A DNA stretch of 64,000 nt from Candidatus Accumulibacter cognatus (GTDB lineage Bacteria; Pseudomonadota; Gammaproteobacteria; Burkholderiales; Rhodocyclaceae): NCBI GenBank assembly GCA_013414765.1, contig CP058708.1, positions 4,630,748 through 4,694,747 on the forward strand, in the 5' to 3' direction. The position numbers and the translations under genes are program-made. Below the pieces are notes generated by a model, which searched no databases, was not told the DNA's origin, and saw nothing but the letters and a program-made list of their open reading frames with translations. Below are positions 23,219-30,096 of the stretch, piece after piece (position 1 is the stretch's first letter; each line of letters opens with the position of its first letter).

Positions 23219-23975
23219 TTAAGCATATGTTCTAGTAAAAAAATATCCAATTCCGTGAAATCGGCGCCTGCCTACGCGGCGTAGCTTGTCGGCTTTTTCC
23301 TTGAGCGGGAAGAACAGGCCGATGAACTCGAGGATTTGGGCCTGTTGATCTTCCGGGTGTGGCGAATGCGGGTGACGCTGACCGTTACGGCCGGTGCTGA
23401 AGAGATAGGTCAATCGTCCGAGCGCCACCAAGGCGTCGTCCGGAGTGATGGCGGCGGGGTCGTCTTCGGTGCTGCCGAAGGTCCGGTGTAGATCGGTTTC
23501 AAACCGCCGCGTGATCTTCATGGCGAGCATTGCCACGAAGGCATGCGCCTTGGTCCGCTCGGCCTTGCACGGGAAGGAAGATCGGGTGAGTTTTCAGGAA
23601 GGTGGTTTTCAGGGTACGGAAGTTGCGCTCGACTATTACAGGTTGAGCTTGCTTTCCACAGTGCTGCCCAGCACCCGCATGGTGCCCGCTTCGTCGCCAA
23701 CTGCTTAACCGTTGGCGATGAGGCTGCGCACTCGGGCAGGCAATCGCTCCCCTGGCGCGCATATCCGTTAAATAAAGGCACATTCCGAATGGAAGCGCTC
23801 GCCGCCTTTTGATGTCCGGGCGCCGGGTTTCGACATCGTGTGCGCGCAGCAGGTCTATGAACTGGCCGTCTGATGGCATGCGGCAAGCGCCCGGGGGCCT
23901 GGCCCGCTGGTGCCCGCGGGCGCATGGTTCAAAGCAGCGAGATTCTGTGCGCGCCTGCCGTTTCGGTGAGCACAA
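23219..23975 (-). pseudogene. IS5-family (IS427/IS1031-type) transposase remnant
   Basis: Frameshifted fragments PVIVERNFRTLKTTF / AHAFVAMLAMKITRR resemble the C-terminal VVERtFaWL...RRL region of IS5-group transposases; no intact ORF. Confidence 0.4.
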
Positions 23976-24954
23976 ACTCGACAGGCAGGAACTTGCCGAT
24001 CACTTCCACATTGGTCTGCAGATGCGAAGACACCCTCACCGTGGTGAAGGACCCGGCACCGGCGAGTGCCAGCGGCAGGACCAGCTGATCTGCCAGATGC
24101 TCGCCCACCACTGCAGTGCTGTCATGAAAATGCCGGGCGAGCTTCGCCACACGGTTGGCCACCACTTCAGCCGGCAAACCCTTTTCGCCAAAGGCAGTGA
24201 ACAGTTCGGTGATTTCTCTGTATTGCAGCTCAACCAGTAAAGCATTTCCTGGCCCCTCGCGCGAAGGCAGGGCACGCAGTTCCTGCTGCAATTCCCCCAG
24301 CACCCCGCCGAGCTGCAAGTCCAGTTCCGCCAGCTCGCGTTTGGCCACCTCAACGGGCACCCCCGCGACGATGGCCGTCGCCCGCGCTGCGCGCAGCTCG
24401 CCACGCTCCAGCAACTCGAAGGACTGCAGGGCCGAGACCGGACATACCCTGGCGTACAGCTCACCGCCGCCTGCCGGATAAAAGCCGTGGCGTAGCAGCT
24501 CGATGGCCATCTCCACACCCATGCGCAGGAGCAGCGGCAGCCAGCTACGGCTCAGAAAATCGAGTGGCGGTGCCGCTGGATTGTGGGTTCCGCCGCTGAT
24601 CCGCAGCGTGCTCGGTGCATCGGCGAACCACAGCGCCGGCAACAAGGTCTGCAGTACCAAGGTGCAGCTACCGGCCGTGCCAATGGCAAAGCGGTAGTCG
24701 TCACCGCGAATCTTGCCAGGGACAAAGCTCAGGGCTTGTGAACCCGGTGCCGCCCCCTGTACCTGTGCGCCGCAGATCTGCGCGGCGGCATTCACCGCCG
24801 TCAGATGCTGCCGCAACAAGCCAGGCTTGCTGCGCCTTGCACGAATTCGCTCGATGCGAAACGGTATTCCGGTAATCATCGACAAGGTCAGTGCGGTACG
24901 CAGAATTTGCCCGCCGCCTTCTCCGTGCGATCCGTCGAGTTCAATCATCTTCAT
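23929..24954 (-). CDS. rtcA: RNA 3'-terminal phosphate cyclase
   Basis: MIELDGSHGEGGGQILRTALTLSMITGIPFRIERIRARRSKPGL is the canonical RtcA N-terminus. Confidence 0.9.
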   Translation of the reverse strand: MKMIELDGSHGEGGGQILRTALTLSMITGIPFRIERIRARRSKPGLLRQHLTAVNAAAQICGAQVQGAAPGSQALSFVPGKIRGDDYRFAIGTAGSCTLVLQTLLPALWFADAPSTLRISGGTHNPAAPPLDFLSRSWLPLLLRMGVEMAIELLRHGFYPAGGGELYARVCPVSALQSFELLERGELRAARATAIVAGVPVEVAKRELAELDLQLGGVLGELQQELRALPSREGPGNALLVELQYREITELFTAFGEKGLPAEVVANRVAKLARHFHDSTAVVGEHLADQLVLPLALAGAGSFTTVRVSSHLQTNVEVIGKFLPVEFVLTETAGAHRISLL

Positions 24955-24982
24955 TCTTTCTTCTTGTTCCAGAAAGTAACTC

Positions 24983-26202
24983 TCAACCCTTGACGCACAC
25001 CACCTGGCGCAGAGTATGTACCACCTCCACGAGTTCGCGCTGCGCGTGCATCACCGCATCGATATCCTTGTAGGCCATCGGGATTTCATCGATCACATCG
25101 GCATCCTTCCGGCACTCGACGTGGGCGGTGGCGCGCTCCTGGTCGGCAACGGTGAAGCGGCGTCGGGCTTCGTTCCGGCTCATTGTTCGTCCGGCGCCGT
25201 GACTGCAGGAGCAAAACGATTCCTTGTTGCCCAGGCCGCGCACGATGAAACTCTTGGCGCCCATCGAACCCGGAATGATGCCGAGTTCGCCTTTCTGTGC
25301 CGAGACCGCCCCCTTGCGGGTGACCAATACTTCCGCACCAAAGTGAGTCTCGCGCTGGACGTAGTTGTGGTGGCAGTTTACGGCCTCGACGCTGGCGCCA
25401 AACGGTTTGGCAATCACGCCACGCGTAGCCGCAATGACGTTCTGCATCATCAGCAGACGATTTCGCCGCGCAAAATCCTGCGCCCAGCCGACAGCTTCGA
25501 CGTATTCGTTGAAGTGCTGGCTTCCCTCCTCAAAATAGGCGAGGTCACGATTCGGCAGATGGGAGATGTGCTGCTGCATATCCTTCTGTGCCAGTTTGAT
25601 GAAGTGGCTACCGATGGCATTACCGACGCCGCGCGAACCGGAATGCAGCATGAACCAGACGCGATCCGCTTCGTCGAGACAGACTTCGATGAAGTGGTTG
25701 CCGGTACCAAGCGTGCCGAGGTGCTTGTGGTTGTTGGTGTTCTTGAGACAAGGATGCCGGTCGGTGATGCGTGTAAAGCCTTCGATCAAACCAGCCCACA
25801 TGGCATCGACACTTGCCGGTGGCGTATCCCATGACCCTTCGTCGCGCCGGCCCCGGCCCATCGTTCGCCCGTGCGGCACGGCGCGCTCAATGGCCGTACG
25901 CAGCGCCAGCAGATTGTCCGGCAAATCGGTCGCCAGCAGCGTCGTGCACGCGGCCATCATGCCGCAGCCGATATCGACACCGACGGCAGCCGGGATGATC
26001 GCACCCTGCGTCGGGATGACGCTGCCGATCGTCGAACCCTTGCCCAGGTGTACATCTGGCATCACCGCCAGGTGCCGATAGATGAAGGGCATTCTGGCGG
26101 TGTCGATCAACTGCTTGCGGGCTTCGTCCTCAACCGGAACGTCTTGCGTCCACATCTTGATCGGTTTGCCGTTTTCGACTTCGAGGAGTTGATAGTCCAT
26201 TT
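24983..26202 (-). CDS. rtcB: RNA-splicing ligase RtcB
   Basis: RtcB signatures (NCHHNYV, GSMGAKS, SHGAGR); start at MDYQLLEV. Confidence 0.9.
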
Positions 26203-26213
26203 CCGTAATTCTT

Positions 26214-26615
26214 TCACTGATCGTCGGCGGCCTGCTTCTTCTGCAGGCCTTCCTGTTGCATACGGCGGGCCTGTGACTTGCGTTCGCGTTCCTTGATACG
26301 ACAAGGCCTGCATCGTACCGCGGTCGTTTCAACATTGCCCTGGGCAACTTCGTACCACCACTTTTGCTGCGTTGCGGTCCAGACGCACTCGACGCCGCAA
26401 TCCCTGCACCGGAAAGCAATGTCCACGTAATAACCGCGTTCGATGAACGCAGGCGCCCCGTAGCTGATGCGGCGAGCCAGGCGGGTCGTATCACACCACA
26501 CGATGCCCGAAGAGTAGACGTCAACCGACAGTGGCGAGGGGCTGCTCTGAATGCGCGTCGTACGCCGTAACCGGGCACTCTTGATTTCCAGCTTGCGCTG
26601 TTTTCCACTTTTCAT
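26214..26615 (-). CDS. C4 zinc-ribbon protein with lysine/arginine-rich tails (Rtc-operon associated)
   Basis: 133 aa; CRDCGVEC...x21...CRPC zinc-ribbon spacing; basic N- and C-termini suggest nucleic-acid binding; 11 nt upstream of rtcB. Confidence 0.55.
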   Translation of the reverse strand: MKSGKQRKLEIKSARLRRTTRIQSSPSPLSVDVYSSGIVWCDTTRLARRISYGAPAFIERGYYVDIAFRCRDCGVECVWTATQQKWWYEVAQGNVETTAVRCRPCRIKERERKSQARRMQQEGLQKKQAADDQ

Positions 26616-26699
26616 GATTTCACCTACACTTTCTGATTACCGCATTTTCAGGTTTTCACCGCTCGCTCTCTCCCTACATCGCACGAGAGGGTAAGCGAC

Positions 26700-27845
26700 T
26701 CACGCGCCCTTGATGTTCACCAGTCCGCTCAACACCTGATCCAGGCCACCAAACACCGAAATGCGGTCGATTCGTTCCGCCACACGTTCCAGGGTTTCCA
26801 GCTCCTTCAGACGCAGCGCGACCGGGTTTCCTTCCATCACTTTCGCGGTATTGAGCAGCGAACGTGTTGCCGCGGTTTCCTCACGGCGACGAATGACGTT
26901 CGCCTCAGCCAGCTTTCCGGCTTCGACCACCTTGGCAAGAATGGTCTTCATTTCGCCGGGCAGAACGATGTCCTTGACGCCGATGCTGCTCACCTCGATC
27001 CCGAAGCCGTTCAGCTTGCGCGCCACGTGCGCGCTGACTGCTTCGTCGATGATCTGCTTGTTTTCCAGCAGCTCGTCGAGCGATCGTGTTCCCACCGCGG
27101 CCCGCAAGCCGAACTGCAGTTCTCGATACAGGTGTTCGACTGGCTTTGCCAGCTTTTCGTGCGCCAGCAGCACGTCGGTATAGCGCCAGGTAGCCGCAAG
27201 GTTGAGGCGCAGGCCGACCTTGTCGCTGCTCAGAATTTCCTGGCCCGACACTTCCATGTTCTGCAGACGCATATCGACGAGTTCAACCAGCACTTCGCGG
27301 TTGAAGCGCCAGAATACCTCGACGCCGGGTGACATCAATCGCTGCACCTTGCCGTCGACGCGCAGAATGCCGACGTGGTAGGCAGGCACCTGCGCGATTA
27401 GCAGGCCGGCCAGGCCGCTCACCGCGTGCGCCCGCAGGCTCGGCTGCAGGAAGTGCGCTGCCAGTTGCGGTCCGACTTCATAGCCTTGCTGCAGATCGAC
27501 TTTTTCCAGTCTATGCTCGGCCAGGCCCTTCCAGAAAATGCGTCGTGACCCAGGCGCCAGCACTTCGACCAGGATCTTGTTCTCATAGCGCAATCCTGCC
27601 TCGTCCTCACCCAGTTCCATGCAGACGAAATGTTCCGCAACGGTCTGCGGCTGATGCTGAAGCAGGTAGTCGACCAGCGTGATGTCGCGCATGGGAGCGT
27701 CGAGCTTCCAGCTCTGGACCGAGAGCCGGTTCACAGGGTCGAAGAAGTAGTAACGGCCAGCGCTGAGAATGCGTTCGAAATCACCTTCCTTGAACAAGGC
27801 AGCCCGTTCACTCTTCAACACGACGAAACGCTTCAACATGTTCAT
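26700..27845 (-). CDS. SPFH/band-7 (slipin-like) domain protein
   Basis: 381 aa; band-7 core (IAQVPAYHVGILRVDGKV...NMEVSGQEILSSDKVGLRLNL...) plus C-terminal coiled-coil; first ORF downstream of the sigma54 promoter. Confidence 0.85.
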   Translation of the reverse strand: MNMLKRFVVLKSERAALFKEGDFERILSAGRYYFFDPVNRLSVQSWKLDAPMRDITLVDYLLQHQPQTVAEHFVCMELGEDEAGLRYENKILVEVLAPGSRRIFWKGLAEHRLEKVDLQQGYEVGPQLAAHFLQPSLRAHAVSGLAGLLIAQVPAYHVGILRVDGKVQRLMSPGVEVFWRFNREVLVELVDMRLQNMEVSGQEILSSDKVGLRLNLAATWRYTDVLLAHEKLAKPVEHLYRELQFGLRAAVGTRSLDELLENKQIIDEAVSAHVARKLNGFGIEVSSIGVKDIVLPGEMKTILAKVVEAGKLAEANVIRRREETAATRSLLNTAKVMEGNPVALRLKELETLERVAERIDRISVFGGLDQVLSGLVNIKGA

Positions 27846-28106
27846 TCTCCTTTGCTGTTGTTCTGTTGCCGGTCAATGCCGGTCCGCTGGGCCGATTGCC
27901 CGGCACTCGCGGGGAAGCGAGTGGCTGCCTGCCGGAGTCAGCGCTTCTCCCTTGGTGCCGAGGCACGCGGGGGAGGGCTGACATTCCTGCTTCGTCGCCT
28001 GCTCACCGTGCCGCCAGTGCGGGACAGTCGCCGACCGGACCGGCAGCGGGAGCTTGCGCATCCCGCGACCGACGGGTACTGCTAGCTTACGCTGTCGTGG
28101 AAAGAC

Positions 28107-28180
28107 AGTTTGGAGCGGGAATCGAACCCGCGACACACTGAGGATGAGTCAGTTGCTCTAACCGATTGAGCTATCCAATG
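28107..28180 (-). ncRNA. tRNA-like element (tRNA-Met CAU-like D-, anticodon- and T-arms, imperfect acceptor stem)
   Basis: Minus strand reads CATTGGA-TA-GCTCAATCGGTTAGAGC-A-ACTGA-CTCATCC-TCAGT-GTGTC-GCGGGTTCGATTCCCGC-TCCAAAC-T. The D-arm is near-identical to tRNA-Met; the anticodon loop carries CAT but pyrimidines at 37 and 38; two mismatches (1-72, 2-71) in the acceptor stem. Confidence 0.5.
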
Positions 28181-28181
28181 G

Positions 28182-28227
28182 GGGCGACCCGGGAATCGAA
28201 CCCGACGAGCTCCCGACGAGATCGCCC
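28182..28227 (-). ncRNA. Mini tRNA-like hairpin (acceptor-like stem enclosing a T-arm)
   Basis: GGGCGAT...TCGGGTTCGATTCCCGG-GTCGCCC-CCA: a 7-bp stem (GGGCGAT/GTCGCCC) closing a canonical T-stem-loop (TTCGATT), immediately 5' of the tRNA-like element on the same strand. Confidence 0.35.
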
Positions 28228-28351
28228 GTTATCGCCTTCCCGCTGTGGCGGCATGCACAGAAACGACAGACCGGAATCCGGTCTCTGCGCACCGGCGGGG
28301 TTTTGATCCCCTGCCCGTGGGCGTGCAGCGATGTTGCGACAGCTCTTCCAC

Positions 28352-28368
28352 AGCGAAATTCGTGCCAA
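28352..28368 (-). promoter_or_regulatory. sigma54 (-24/-12) promoter driving the tRNA-like elements, SPFH gene, zinc-ribbon gene, rtcB and rtcA
   Basis: Minus strand TGGCAC-GAATT-TCGCT against the consensus TGGCAC-N5-TTGCW; GG-N10-GC spacing is correct; divergent from rtcR, which encodes the cognate sigma54 activator. Confidence 0.55.
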
Positions 28369-28506
28369 CCTCTCGGAGAACCGCGGCATTGCATTCAAGC
28401 CATTGATCTGGCGAGATCTCCAGGATATTTGCGGCTTCCGTGAAAACAGGAGTGGGCGGCTTTTATTAGAATATAGAATCGATATTTATCTTTAAGGATA
28501 GTCAAC

Positions 28507-30096
28507 ATGAAGAGGAGCGTCGTCATCGGTTTTCTCGGTACGCAACTCGATTACGGTGGCAAGGGTAGCGCACGATGGGAGAAGTGGCGGCCGACGGTCG
28601 CCCTCTGCCAGCAGGAGGAGCTGATCGTTCATCGTCTGGAGTTGCTGCATGATGCACGCAGCCGCGGGCTGGCCGAGAGTGTGCAGGCGGACATCCAGTC
28701 GATATCGCCCGAAACCGAAGTCTGCCGCGTCGAGATCGAGCTGCGCGACCCCTGGGATTTCGAGGAAGTCTACACGACGCTGCACGACTTCGCGCGCGCT
28801 TACCCGTTCGACCCCGAGAACGAGGATTACCTGCTGCACATCACGACAGGAACCCATGTCGCACAGATCTGCTGGTTCCTGCTGGCCGAAGCGCGCTATT
28901 TGCCGGCCCGACTCCTGCAGACCTCACCGGCACGCAAGAAGGAGGTGGCGAATACTGCCGGAAGCTACGAGATCATCGATCTGGACCTGTCGCGCTACAA
29001 CAAGATTGCGCAGCGCTTTCAGCGCGAGCGCGCCGACACGGTGAGCTTCCTGAAATCCGGGATTGCCACGCGCAACGCCAGTTTCAACCGCATGATCGAG
29101 CAGATCGAACGGGTAGCGGGGCGCTCGAAGTCGCCAATGCTGCTGATCGGCCCCACCGGTGCGGGCAAATCGTTTCTCGCCCGCCGGGTGTACGAACTCA
29201 AGCGACAGAAGCAGCGTCTGGCCGGACGTTTCATCGAGGTGAACTGCGCGACCTTGCGCGGCGATTCGGCCATGTCCAGCCTTTTCGGCCACGTCAAGGG
29301 AGCCTTCACGGGGGCGCAAAATGAACGCCCCGGGCTCCTTCGAGCGGCCGATGGCGGATTGCTGTTTCTAGACGAAATCGGCGAACTCGGACTGGACGAG
29401 CAGGCAATGCTACTCAAGGCGATCGAGGAAAAGCGCTTCTTCCCCTTCGGTGGCGACCAGGAAGTAACGAGCGACTTCCAGCTCATCGCCGGCACCCATC
29501 GCGACCTGCGCCATTGGGTTGCCGAGGGGCATTTCCGCGAAGACCTGTATGCGCGCATCAACCTGTGGACCTTCGACCTGCCCGGCCTGGCTCAACGGCC
29601 CGAGGACATCGAGCCCAATCTCGATTACGAGCTGGAACGTTATGCGCGTGACCATGATCAGCTCGTGCGCTTCAACGTCGAAGCCCGCCGCCGCTATCTG
29701 GCCTTTGCCAGCTCGGCGGACGCTGTCTGGAGCGGCAATTTCCGTGAACTCTCGGCATCGGTCACGCGCATGGCGACTCTGGCCGAAGCGGGACGGATCA
29801 CCGAGGCGCTGGTTATCGAGGAGATCGAGCGGCTTGGCCACAGCTGGGTCAGCCGCCGGCCGGCCGATGCGGTCGCTGCTATCCTGGGCGAACAGGCCGA
29901 GCAACTCGACCTCTTCGATCGCTGCCAGCTTAACGCGGTGATCGCTGTTTGCCGGCAAGCGGCAAGCCTTTCGGATGCCGGTCGACAGCTTTTCGCCGTA
30001 TCCCGCTTGGACAAGAAAACGGCCAACGACGCTGACCGGCTGCGCAAATACCTGTCACGCTTCGGCCTCGACTGGACGGCCGTAAATCACCAATGA
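28507..30096 (+). CDS. rtcR: sigma54-dependent transcriptional regulator RtcR (CARF domain + AAA+ + HTH)
   Basis: 529 aa; N-terminal CARF-like domain, central sigma54-interaction AAA+ (LLIGPTGAGKS...GAFTGA...GGLLFLDEIGEL), C-terminal HTH; divergent from the rtcBA operon. Confidence 0.9.
   Translation: MKRSVVIGFLGTQLDYGGKGSARWEKWRPTVALCQQEELIVHRLELLHDARSRGLAESVQADIQSISPETEVCRVEIELRDPWDFEEVYTTLHDFARAYPFDPENEDYLLHITTGTHVAQICWFLLAEARYLPARLLQTSPARKKEVANTAGSYEIIDLDLSRYNKIAQRFQRERADTVSFLKSGIATRNASFNRMIEQIERVAGRSKSPMLLIGPTGAGKSFLARRVYELKRQKQRLAGRFIEVNCATLRGDSAMSSLFGHVKGAFTGAQNERPGLLRAADGGLLFLDEIGELGLDEQAMLLKAIEEKRFFPFGGDQEVTSDFQLIAGTHRDLRHWVAEGHFREDLYARINLWTFDLPGLAQRPEDIEPNLDYELERYARDHDQLVRFNVEARRRYLAFASSADAVWSGNFRELSASVTRMATLAEAGRITEALVIEEIERLGHSWVSRRPADAVAAILGEQAEQLDLFDRCQLNAVIAVCRQAASLSDAGRQLFAVSRLDKKTANDADRLRKYLSRFGLDWTAVNHQ

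Follow-up and report, generated by a model that had tools for sequence, protein, structure and literature searches.

A probable Band-7/b7a-tRNA-type Rtc operon with a structured leader RNA in Candidatus Accumulibacter cognatus

What could an RNA-repair operon gain from a protein of the SPFH/band-7 family and from an RNA that resembles tRNA? The question is raised by an rtc locus at positions 23929-30096 of a 64,000-nucleotide stretch of the Candidatus Accumulibacter cognatus genome (contig CP058708.1; the whole stretch is called the window here), in which the regulator gene rtcR is divergent from genes for an SPFH protein, a zinc-finger protein, the RNA ligase RtcB and the RNA cyclase RtcA. 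Our comparative analysis assigns this locus with high confidence to the Band-7/b7a-tRNA type of Rtc operon, and covariation among orthologues supports the view that its leader of about 500 nucleotides (nt) is, over its whole length, a structured RNA of 13 helices, including two tandem tRNA-like modules, a GNRA hairpin and long-range helices. As to function, we tentatively favor, with a probability of about 0.4, a ribonucleoprotein (RNP) scaffold in which the SPFH protein and the leader RNA would assist RtcB and RtcA, by analogy to Ro60 and Y RNA.

Layout and transcription of the locus

An earlier, sequence-only reading of this DNA had listed five genes and a tRNA-like element, all of which we find on the strands it had given. 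The locus is made up as follows, in positions of the window:

28507-30096, plus strand: rtcR, 529 amino acids (aa), transcriptional activator with an RtcR/CARF-like N-terminal domain, a sigma-54 AAA+ domain and a C-terminal helix-turn-helix
28353-28367, minus strand: predicted sigma-54 promoter TGGCACGAATTTCGC, with GG at 28366-28365 and GC at 28354-28353
27840-28341, minus strand: structured leader RNA of about 500 nt, supported by covariation among orthologues, without a credible open reading frame (ORF)
26700-27839, minus strand: SPFH/band-7 ('slipin') gene, 379 aa; PF01145, 93 bits
26214-26615, minus strand: zinc-finger gene, 133 aa; PF13451 (zf_Tbcl), 48.9 bits against a cut-off of 24
24983-26200, minus strand: rtcB, 3'-phosphate/5'-OH RNA ligase, 405 aa; PF01139, 427 bits, full length
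23929-24954, minus strand: rtcA, RNA 3'-terminal phosphate cyclase, 341 aa; PF01137, 270 bits, plus RTC_insert; NCBIfam equivalog, 465 bits

The order on the minus strand is therefore promoter, leader, SPFH, zinc finger, rtcB and rtcA, with rtcR divergent on the plus strand. The identity of the regulator is borne out by PF06956 (298 bits over residues 2-185), by PF00158 (Sigma54_activat, 170 bits) and by the NCBIfam equivalog NF038308 (RNA_repair_RtcR), which scores 856 bits against a cut-off of 650. It is also the only match to the PADLOC defence-system models, reaching 893 bits with RtcR--CARF_AAA_HTH.

Inspection of the gene starts led to small corrections. The SPFH protein most likely begins at the second ATG, at 27839 (MLKRF...), which has AGGAG 7 nt upstream and agrees with homologues of 378-380 aa; a length of 379 aa is thus more likely than the 381 aa given before, and 84 nt separate the gene from that of the zinc-finger protein. 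As rtcB starts at ATG 26200, the gap between it and the zinc-finger gene is 13 nt, not 11 nt, whereas the 28-nt gap between the co-oriented and adjacent rtcB and rtcA had been given correctly.

What drives the four minus-strand genes? The element TGGCACGAATTTCGC (consensus TGGCACG-N4-TCGC), at 28367-28353 on the minus strand, is the sole match in the window, for which about 0.7 chance matches are expected. Standard -24/-12 geometry would place the start of transcription near 28341. For comparison, relatives of the SPFH protein were collected by a degenerate-pattern scan over one genome per species, which yielded at least 593 genome loci. Counts of synteny and of leader features refer throughout to the best 80 of these, which come from Rhodocyclales, Burkholderiales and Pseudomonas and encode SPFH proteins of 62-96% identity; denominators of 70-77 are the loci that had enough sequence or were scored. 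In 50 of the 80 orthologous loci, nearly all of which also have rtcR, the SPFH start codon is preceded by the sigma-54 motif at a distance of 450-575 nt. No repeats that might serve as RtcR binding sites were found between the promoter and rtcR.

On the minus strand from 27845 to 23929 we detected neither a sigma-70-like promoter nor an intrinsic terminator, in keeping with the earlier view that the SPFH and zinc-finger genes stand inside the rtcBA operon. Together, these observations support a single predicted transcription unit of SPFH, zinc-finger, rtcB and rtcA genes under RtcR/sigma-54 control. Operons of this kind are generally accepted to repair RNA in response to toxins, a role that had been suggested for the present one too (Hughes 2020, PMC7790460; Burroughs & Aravind 2016, cited by way of bioRxiv 10.1101/312249).

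Structure of the leader RNA

Is the leader more than the carrier of a tRNA-like element? When 51 leaders are aligned, blocks of conservation appear all the way from the promoter to the ribosome-binding site, and RNAalifold, applied to 26 leaders from Rhodocyclales and Burkholderia, proposes 93 pairs, 60 of them with compensatory changes. One pairing in its output, of the promoter's TGGC with a GCCA, was discarded because the promoter is not transcribed. We scored a curated structure of 94 pairs in 13 helices: 94.4% of the alignment cells can pair, compared with 35-46% when the partner strand is slid, and double changes occur in 63 of the 94 pairs, compared with 21-31 in the slid controls. None of 500 shuffles reaches the observed values; of these controls, sliding preserves the phylogeny and shuffling does not. 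The window's leader on its own folds with z = -4.6. In an Rfam search of the leader (E <= 10), tRNA was the only credible match, with nothing else above threshold and no match to GOLLD, ROOL, HEARO or raiA. From 5' to 3', all on the minus strand, the elements described here are:

28291-28318, minus strand: hairpin H1, 9 pairs, 5 compensatory, 98% paired
28255-28290, minus strand: long hairpin H2, 15 pairs, 12 compensatory
28247-28254, minus strand: single-stranded motif ATGCCGCC, found in about 75 of 80 loci at the corresponding position
28182-28227, minus strand: tRNA-like module 1; acceptor stem of 7 bp (GGGCGAT/GTCGCCC), mini-hairpin of 3 bp with GG in its loop, canonical T arm (TTCGATT loop)
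28109-28178, minus strand: tRNA-like module 2; acceptor stem of 5 bp, D arm containing GG, anticodon stem, variable loop of 5 nt, T arm
28092-28108, minus strand: hairpin H9 (CTGTC...GACAG), directly 3' of module 2, 5 pairs, 3 compensatory, 91% paired
28046-28066, minus strand: GNRA-capped hairpin (GCAA), with GCAA, GUGA, GCGA or GAAA loops on a conserved stem in the alignment; only two pairs scored
27868-28073, minus strand: 3' domain, closed by H10 and enclosing H12 and H13 around a variable insert
28073-28068 with 27873-27868, minus strand: long-range helix H10, 6 pairs, mostly invariant
28045-28029 with 27893-27877, minus strand: helix H12, 15 pairs, 14 compensatory
28026-28007 with 27916-27897, minus strand: helix H13, 15 pairs, 12 compensatory

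The motif ATGCCGC(C) at 28247-28254 is kept even where rtcR and the 3' domain are absent. A search for a covarying partner of ATGCCGCC in the leader found none; a pseudoknot with GGCGGCA was considered and rejected, since GGCGGCA is not conserved outside Rhodocyclales and covaries, in its outer bases, with H13 instead.

Two T-loop motifs lie 68-83 nt apart in about two-thirds of the 80 loci. ARAGORN and Rfam recognize one tRNA-like element in the window's leader, which ARAGORN calls as 'tRNA-Met CAT' at 28107-28180 on the minus strand and which scores 51 bits with the Rfam tRNA model at 28110-28178. In 57 of the 80 loci, ARAGORN places such an element at 230-300 nt before the SPFH gene, and overall nearly all of the loci have a tRNA-like element at about 250 nt before it. 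The tRNA-like RNA noted earlier is therefore real, but it is only one module of a far larger structured leader RNA.

In module 1, the mini-hairpin replaces the D and anticodon arms in the window's lineage, and the T arm is 98% paired. Since MAFFT misaligns the 5' strand of its acceptor stem, this helix was tested by a direct script, which found a perfect 7/7 helix in 32 of 70 loci, whereas shuffled sequences gave one in 6%. The module is followed by CCA at 28181-28179, directly before module 2, and (N)CCA stands at the same place, immediately preceding module 2, in about 30 of 70 loci. The Pseudomonas version of module 1 is a full cloverleaf, with a tetraloop as its anticodon loop (ARAGORN; Rfam tRNA 57.8 bits in locus L050).

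Module 2 is the element found by ARAGORN, and it departs from decoding tRNAs in several respects: its acceptor stem has 5 bp and no CCA, its anticodon loop in the window, CUCAUCC, carries a C, a pyrimidine, at position 37, and the 'anticodons' of its orthologues are unrelated to one another. Across the loci, the acceptor stem measures 4-6 bp in 56 of 75 and is never followed by CCA. The anticodon loop is a tetraloop (UUCG, GNRA) in 27 of 77 scored loci and has 7 nt in 23, with many different triplets. The stem below it has compensatory changes in four of five pairs, and the nucleotides of the tRNA tertiary fold are kept, namely GG in the D loop and TTCGA in the T loop. As these nucleotides are retained while the anticodon loop is unconstrained, selection acts on the tRNA body and not on decoding.

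These properties bear directly on two alternative views of the modules. By the first, 28107-28180 would be an ordinary tRNA-Met gene that lies by chance between rtcR and the operon, as the ARAGORN call of tRNA-Met(CAT) and an Rfam tRNA score above the gathering threshold might suggest. We consider this hardly credible given the 5-bp acceptor stem, the lack of a discriminator base or CCA and the C37; in addition, the element lies inside the sigma-54 transcript, always occurs in tandem with module 1, and carries unrelated 'anticodons' or tetraloops in its orthologues. By the second, the modules would be decoys or sentinels for anticodon nucleases, and their cleavage would either spare tRNAs or yield fragments with cyclic phosphate, by which RtcR would be switched on in a feed-forward loop. 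Salmonella RtcR is activated, through its CARF domain, by tRNA halves and fragments with 2',3'-cyclic phosphate ends (PMC7790460), and the diversity of 'anticodons' among species could reflect an arms race. However, a decoy should keep the targeted loop, and here a stable tetraloop takes its place in over a third of the scored loci (the 27 of 77 given above), while the 7-nt loops often have a composition foreign to tRNA, such as C37 in the window. Moreover, the RNA would be made only once RtcR is already active, and in Salmonella the relevant nuclease leaves YrlA uncut (PMC7790460). Altogether, a decoy or sentinel role appears improbable.

A stronger alternative takes the leader as nothing other than a cis-acting 5' untranslated region, which would carry signals for RNase P/RNase Z processing or for stability, or act as an attenuator or sensor that tunes translation of SPFH-rtcBA, without a trans-acting RNP. 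Its structure takes up all of the distance between promoter and ribosome-binding site, the final helix stopping about 15-20 nt short of AGGAG; the spacing of the leader to the SPFH start codon is conserved; and H2 looks superficially like a terminator. Yet H2 is without a proper U tract, the consensus fold leaves the ribosome-binding site free, and the tRNA tertiary nucleotides together with 13 covarying helices over about 500 nt exceed what a processing site needs. The analogous Salmonella operon, furthermore, has bona fide trans-acting Y RNAs. We therefore rate a purely cis-acting leader as unlikely.

Conservation and kinship with known Rtc operons

How common is this arrangement? Within the 80 loci, the SPFH gene is closely followed by rtcB in 66 of 76 and preceded by a divergent rtcR in 55 of 74, and 24 of 76 have the zinc-finger gene inserted after SPFH and ahead of rtcB; a protein from a Candidatus Accumulibacter metagenome-assembled genome is 96% identical to the SPFH protein of the window. 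The comparison of rtcB neighborhoods that the sequence-only reading had proposed as a check thus reveals a strongly conserved linkage of SPFH and rtcB. As the two genes co-occur elsewhere, their linkage is real, and for the same reason the inclusion of an SPFH gene in an RNA-repair operon, which that reading had called unusual, is not so: there are at least 593 loci of the SPFH relatives, and the association has already been published.

The published system is that of RtcB with a Band-7 protein and a predicted tRNA-like non-coding RNA (ncRNA), reported by Burroughs & Aravind in 2016 and, as relayed in bioRxiv 10.1101/312249, proposed to be interchangeable with Ro60/YrlA as cofactor or scaffold. 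By the definition given in that preprint, the system has a Band-7 gene next to rtcB and a tRNA-like ncRNA next to the Band-7 gene; the window has both, with all components in the same order. It also has a divergent rtcR, a predicted sigma-54 promoter and adjacent rtcB and rtcA, the features of an RtcR-regulated rtcBA operon. The association of SPFH, tRNA-like RNA and RtcB is hence an already known variant of the Rtc operon, described in 2016 and present in P. aeruginosa, and not a new kind of system. In its secondary description the system has a single tRNA-like RNA, whereas the window has a leader of about 500 nt with two modules and flanking helices, and a zinc-finger gene in addition. The extent and architecture of the leader, as a large conserved RNA with two tRNA-like modules, are possibly new, set apart from the 2016 report by way of that secondary description only.

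The P. aeruginosa operon consists of PA4582, rtcB, PA4584 and rtcA, with a divergent rtcR (PMC8619066), and its SPFH protein PaFlo8 (PA14_60630) is 'embedded within the rtc locus' according to a 2026 study (PMC13086221). It shares with the window the divergent rtcR and the SPFH gene in first place, followed by rtcB and rtcA; the other Pseudomonas loci in our set, with 62-66% SPFH identity, have the same leader architecture. The window differs in having the zinc-finger gene between SPFH and rtcB, a reduced module 1 without an anticodon arm instead of the full cloverleaf, and no PA4584-like gene in the 28-nt gap between rtcB and rtcA. Inserts of 0.8-3.5 kb occupy this gap in many of our loci (L004, L005, L006, L011, L014, L015, L058, L064 and others), a position that PA4584 of P. 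aeruginosa would fit.

The Salmonella operon rsr-yrlB-yrlA-rtcB-rtcA resembles the locus in its control by RtcR and sigma-54 and in joining to rtcBA a gene for a protein scaffold and two tandem ncRNA modules, one of which mimics tRNA. The scaffold gene there is of the TROVE/Ro60 type, whereas none of the five proteins encoded at the window's locus has a TROVE domain and the operon holds no other ORF; furthermore, the RNA precedes the protein gene in the window, and its tRNA mimic is a cloverleaf in normal order, unlike the permuted fold of YrlA. Membership of the leader in the YrlA/Y RNA family (RF02553) was rejected, as it scores 21.9 bits against a gathering threshold of 69 and the acceptor-like hairpin of the model is mismatched. 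Systems built on RtcB would pair the enzyme with RNA and scaffold cofactors of two kinds, Ro60 with Y RNA on one side and a Band-7 protein with tRNA-like RNA on the other.

With the rtcR/rtcBA locus of E. coli K-12 the window has in common RtcR, the sigma-54 promoter, rtcB and rtcA. E. coli K-12 is not known to have the SPFH gene, the zinc-finger gene or a long tRNA-like leader.

The proteins and a possible RNP scaffold

Is the SPFH protein a membrane protein? In the AlphaFold model (predicted local distance difference test, pLDDT, 76.8), an N-terminal beta domain (residues ~1-145) is followed by the SPFH alpha/beta domain (~146-292) and by long helices (295-360), of which the segments 295-334 and 341-360 are modelled at a pLDDT of 41-63 only. 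The protein contains no transmembrane helix or hydrophobic hairpin: the highest 19-residue Kyte-Doolittle average is 1.44, at residues 143-161, a stretch that the model renders as beta strands. Membrane-anchored SPFH proteins such as stomatin, HflK/C, flotillin and prohibitin have an N-terminal anchor; the protein of the window lacks it and has in its place the beta domain of about 145 aa, which matches no Pfam family even at E <= 10. The earlier description of it as membrane-associated or membrane-linked thus turns out to be an assumption drawn from the family name, unsupported for this subfamily; judged by its sequence, the protein appears to be soluble.

This weakens a further alternative, in which the protein would organize membrane microdomains or regulate a protease and so connect RNA repair with the membrane or with toxins that act on it. 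SPFH proteins are typically membrane-associated, the structural neighbors of this one are membrane cages, and some Burkholderiales loci (L076) have a gene for a ClpP-like serine protease of the SDH type after the SPFH gene. However, besides the missing anchor, there is no NfeD or protease partner in the window, and the partners that are kept in most loci are RNA enzymes and an RNA. We judge a membrane function to be far-fetched for this subfamily. Burkholderiales loci without rtcR have a gene between SPFH and rtcB; in L076 (7154-8239) it is this protease gene (PF01972), which is absent from the window and recalls stomatin-NfeD/protease operons; SPFH-rtcB gaps of similar size, about 1.1 kb, are present in L052, L056, L057, L066 and L075.

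What, then, might the SPFH protein and the leader do? RtcB joins RNA ends with a 3'-phosphate or cyclic phosphate to 5'-OH ends, and RtcA makes cyclic-phosphate RNA ends. In the RNP scaffold that we favor, the leader, or pieces of it freed at the module boundaries by tRNA-processing enzymes such as RNase P, would act in trans as an ncRNA. The tRNA-like modules would mimic the tRNA body, with its stack of acceptor and T arm and its elbow, and not the anticodon. The leader-derived RNA would bind the soluble SPFH protein, which probably forms a large ring or cage like other SPFH proteins, and the resulting particle would scaffold RtcB and RtcA, or specialize them, on broken tRNA or rRNA, as Ro60 may do with YrlA and YrlB. 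The basic zinc-finger protein would be an optional accessory that probably binds nucleic acid.

In favor of this scenario, the protein, with its SPFH domain and long helices, is built like relatives that form cages, the major vault protein among them. The SPFH subfamily is also found with RNA-repair genes even in the absence of RtcB, in records from Citrobacter and E. coli. In an enterobacterial variant at L085:2966-6919, from Citrobacter freundii, rtcR is followed in order by a short leader of about 450 nt, which contains H1 and a single T-loop element, by a gene for a slipin 55-56% identical to the SPFH protein of the window and by a gene with a nucleotidyltransferase domain, with no rtcB or rtcA nearby. 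The same pair of slipin and nucleotidyltransferase genes occurs at L084:5001-6925, from E. coli STEC639. Such pairs without rtcB fit the idea of the SPFH protein as a portable accessory of RNA repair.

Some points count against the RNP scaffold. Both tRNA-like modules are deleted in Pseudomonas aegrilactucae (L044) and P. donghuensis (L051), in which rtcR, the sigma-54 promoter, ATGCCGC, SPFH and rtcB are kept. Deletion of paFlo8 gave no phenotype in assays of growth, virulence, motility, biofilm and oxidative stress, RNA damage being outside the assays described (PMC13086221). Besides, the leader could act purely in cis, and to judge from its sequence the SPFH protein may still bind membranes peripherally.

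A bolder version of the RNP scaffold would treat the whole leader, instead of a single 'b7a-tRNA', as one large structured ncRNA not described before that, with the anchor-less SPFH protein, builds a cytosolic, vault-like RNP cage, in which broken tRNAs or rRNA would be captured for RtcB and RtcA. The eukaryotic vault, with the SPFH shoulder of its major protein, its vault RNA and the TROVE domain of TEP1, shows a likeness at the level of the fold only, with 11-16% identity and a TM score of ~0.35-0.4, and this fold-level comparison gave no evidence of homology beyond the SPFH domain. We consider the vault-like cage a doubtful extension. If it were true, bacteria would have in this locus their own equivalent of the vault and Ro RNPs.

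Should the less far-reaching RNP scaffold prove right, the SPFH-RNA particle would offer a tractable bacterial model for the part that SPFH cages and tRNA mimics play in RNA quality control. In either case, the comparative analysis sharpens the targets for experiments: an apparently soluble SPFH protein, a tRNA body under selection, two modules instead of one, and a covarying RNA of about 500 nt.

Compared with the SPFH protein, the zinc-finger protein is a looser associate. It has a conserved WWYE motif and two CxxC pairs, whose cysteines (C70, C73, C102 and C105) do not vary among 30 homologues; helical tails rich in Lys and Arg form both of its termini, and its net charge is +13. Homologues of 50-53% identity in one cyanobacterium and on two metagenome contigs stand alone in unrelated neighborhoods, and no rtc genes were found in the neighborhoods of these three. 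An integral partnership, as the earlier reading had it, is at odds with these stand-alone homologues and with the presence of the gene in less than a third of the loci (the 24 of 76 given above); the gene is an optional insert, which was probably recruited into some rtc operons, and its product is probably a nucleic-acid-binding accessory. One of the stand-alone homologues, on a metagenome contig (L082:5022-5972), lies 28 nt downstream of a gene for a TIR_2-PDZ protein, a neighborhood that may be related to defence.

Several Burkholderiales loci that lack rtcR (L056, L057, L062, L068, L070, L071, L072, L075, L076 and L077) contain 2-13 tRNA genes of canonical score 1-3 kb upstream of the tRNA-like modules, SPFH and rtcB. 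The members of the array at L071:3135-4813 score 32-63 bits with the Rfam tRNA model, and in L076 the array is followed by genes for a PcfJ-like protein and an HNH endonuclease. These loci have the look of a mobile island in which spare tRNAs are joined to RNA repair. An origin of the system as a phage module was considered and set aside, as only one viral contig carries a relative.

The window holds spurious long ORFs, which follow from its G+C-rich sequence: a GTG-started extension of rtcB to 541 aa (24983-26608, minus strand) that overlaps the zinc-finger gene, and antisense ORFs of 270-680 aa. A mechanical ORF list is therefore unsuitable for calling start sites here. The window opens with rRNA genes, the 3' end of one for 23S rRNA at 1-367 and one for 5S rRNA at 480-593, and thus adjoins an rRNA operon.

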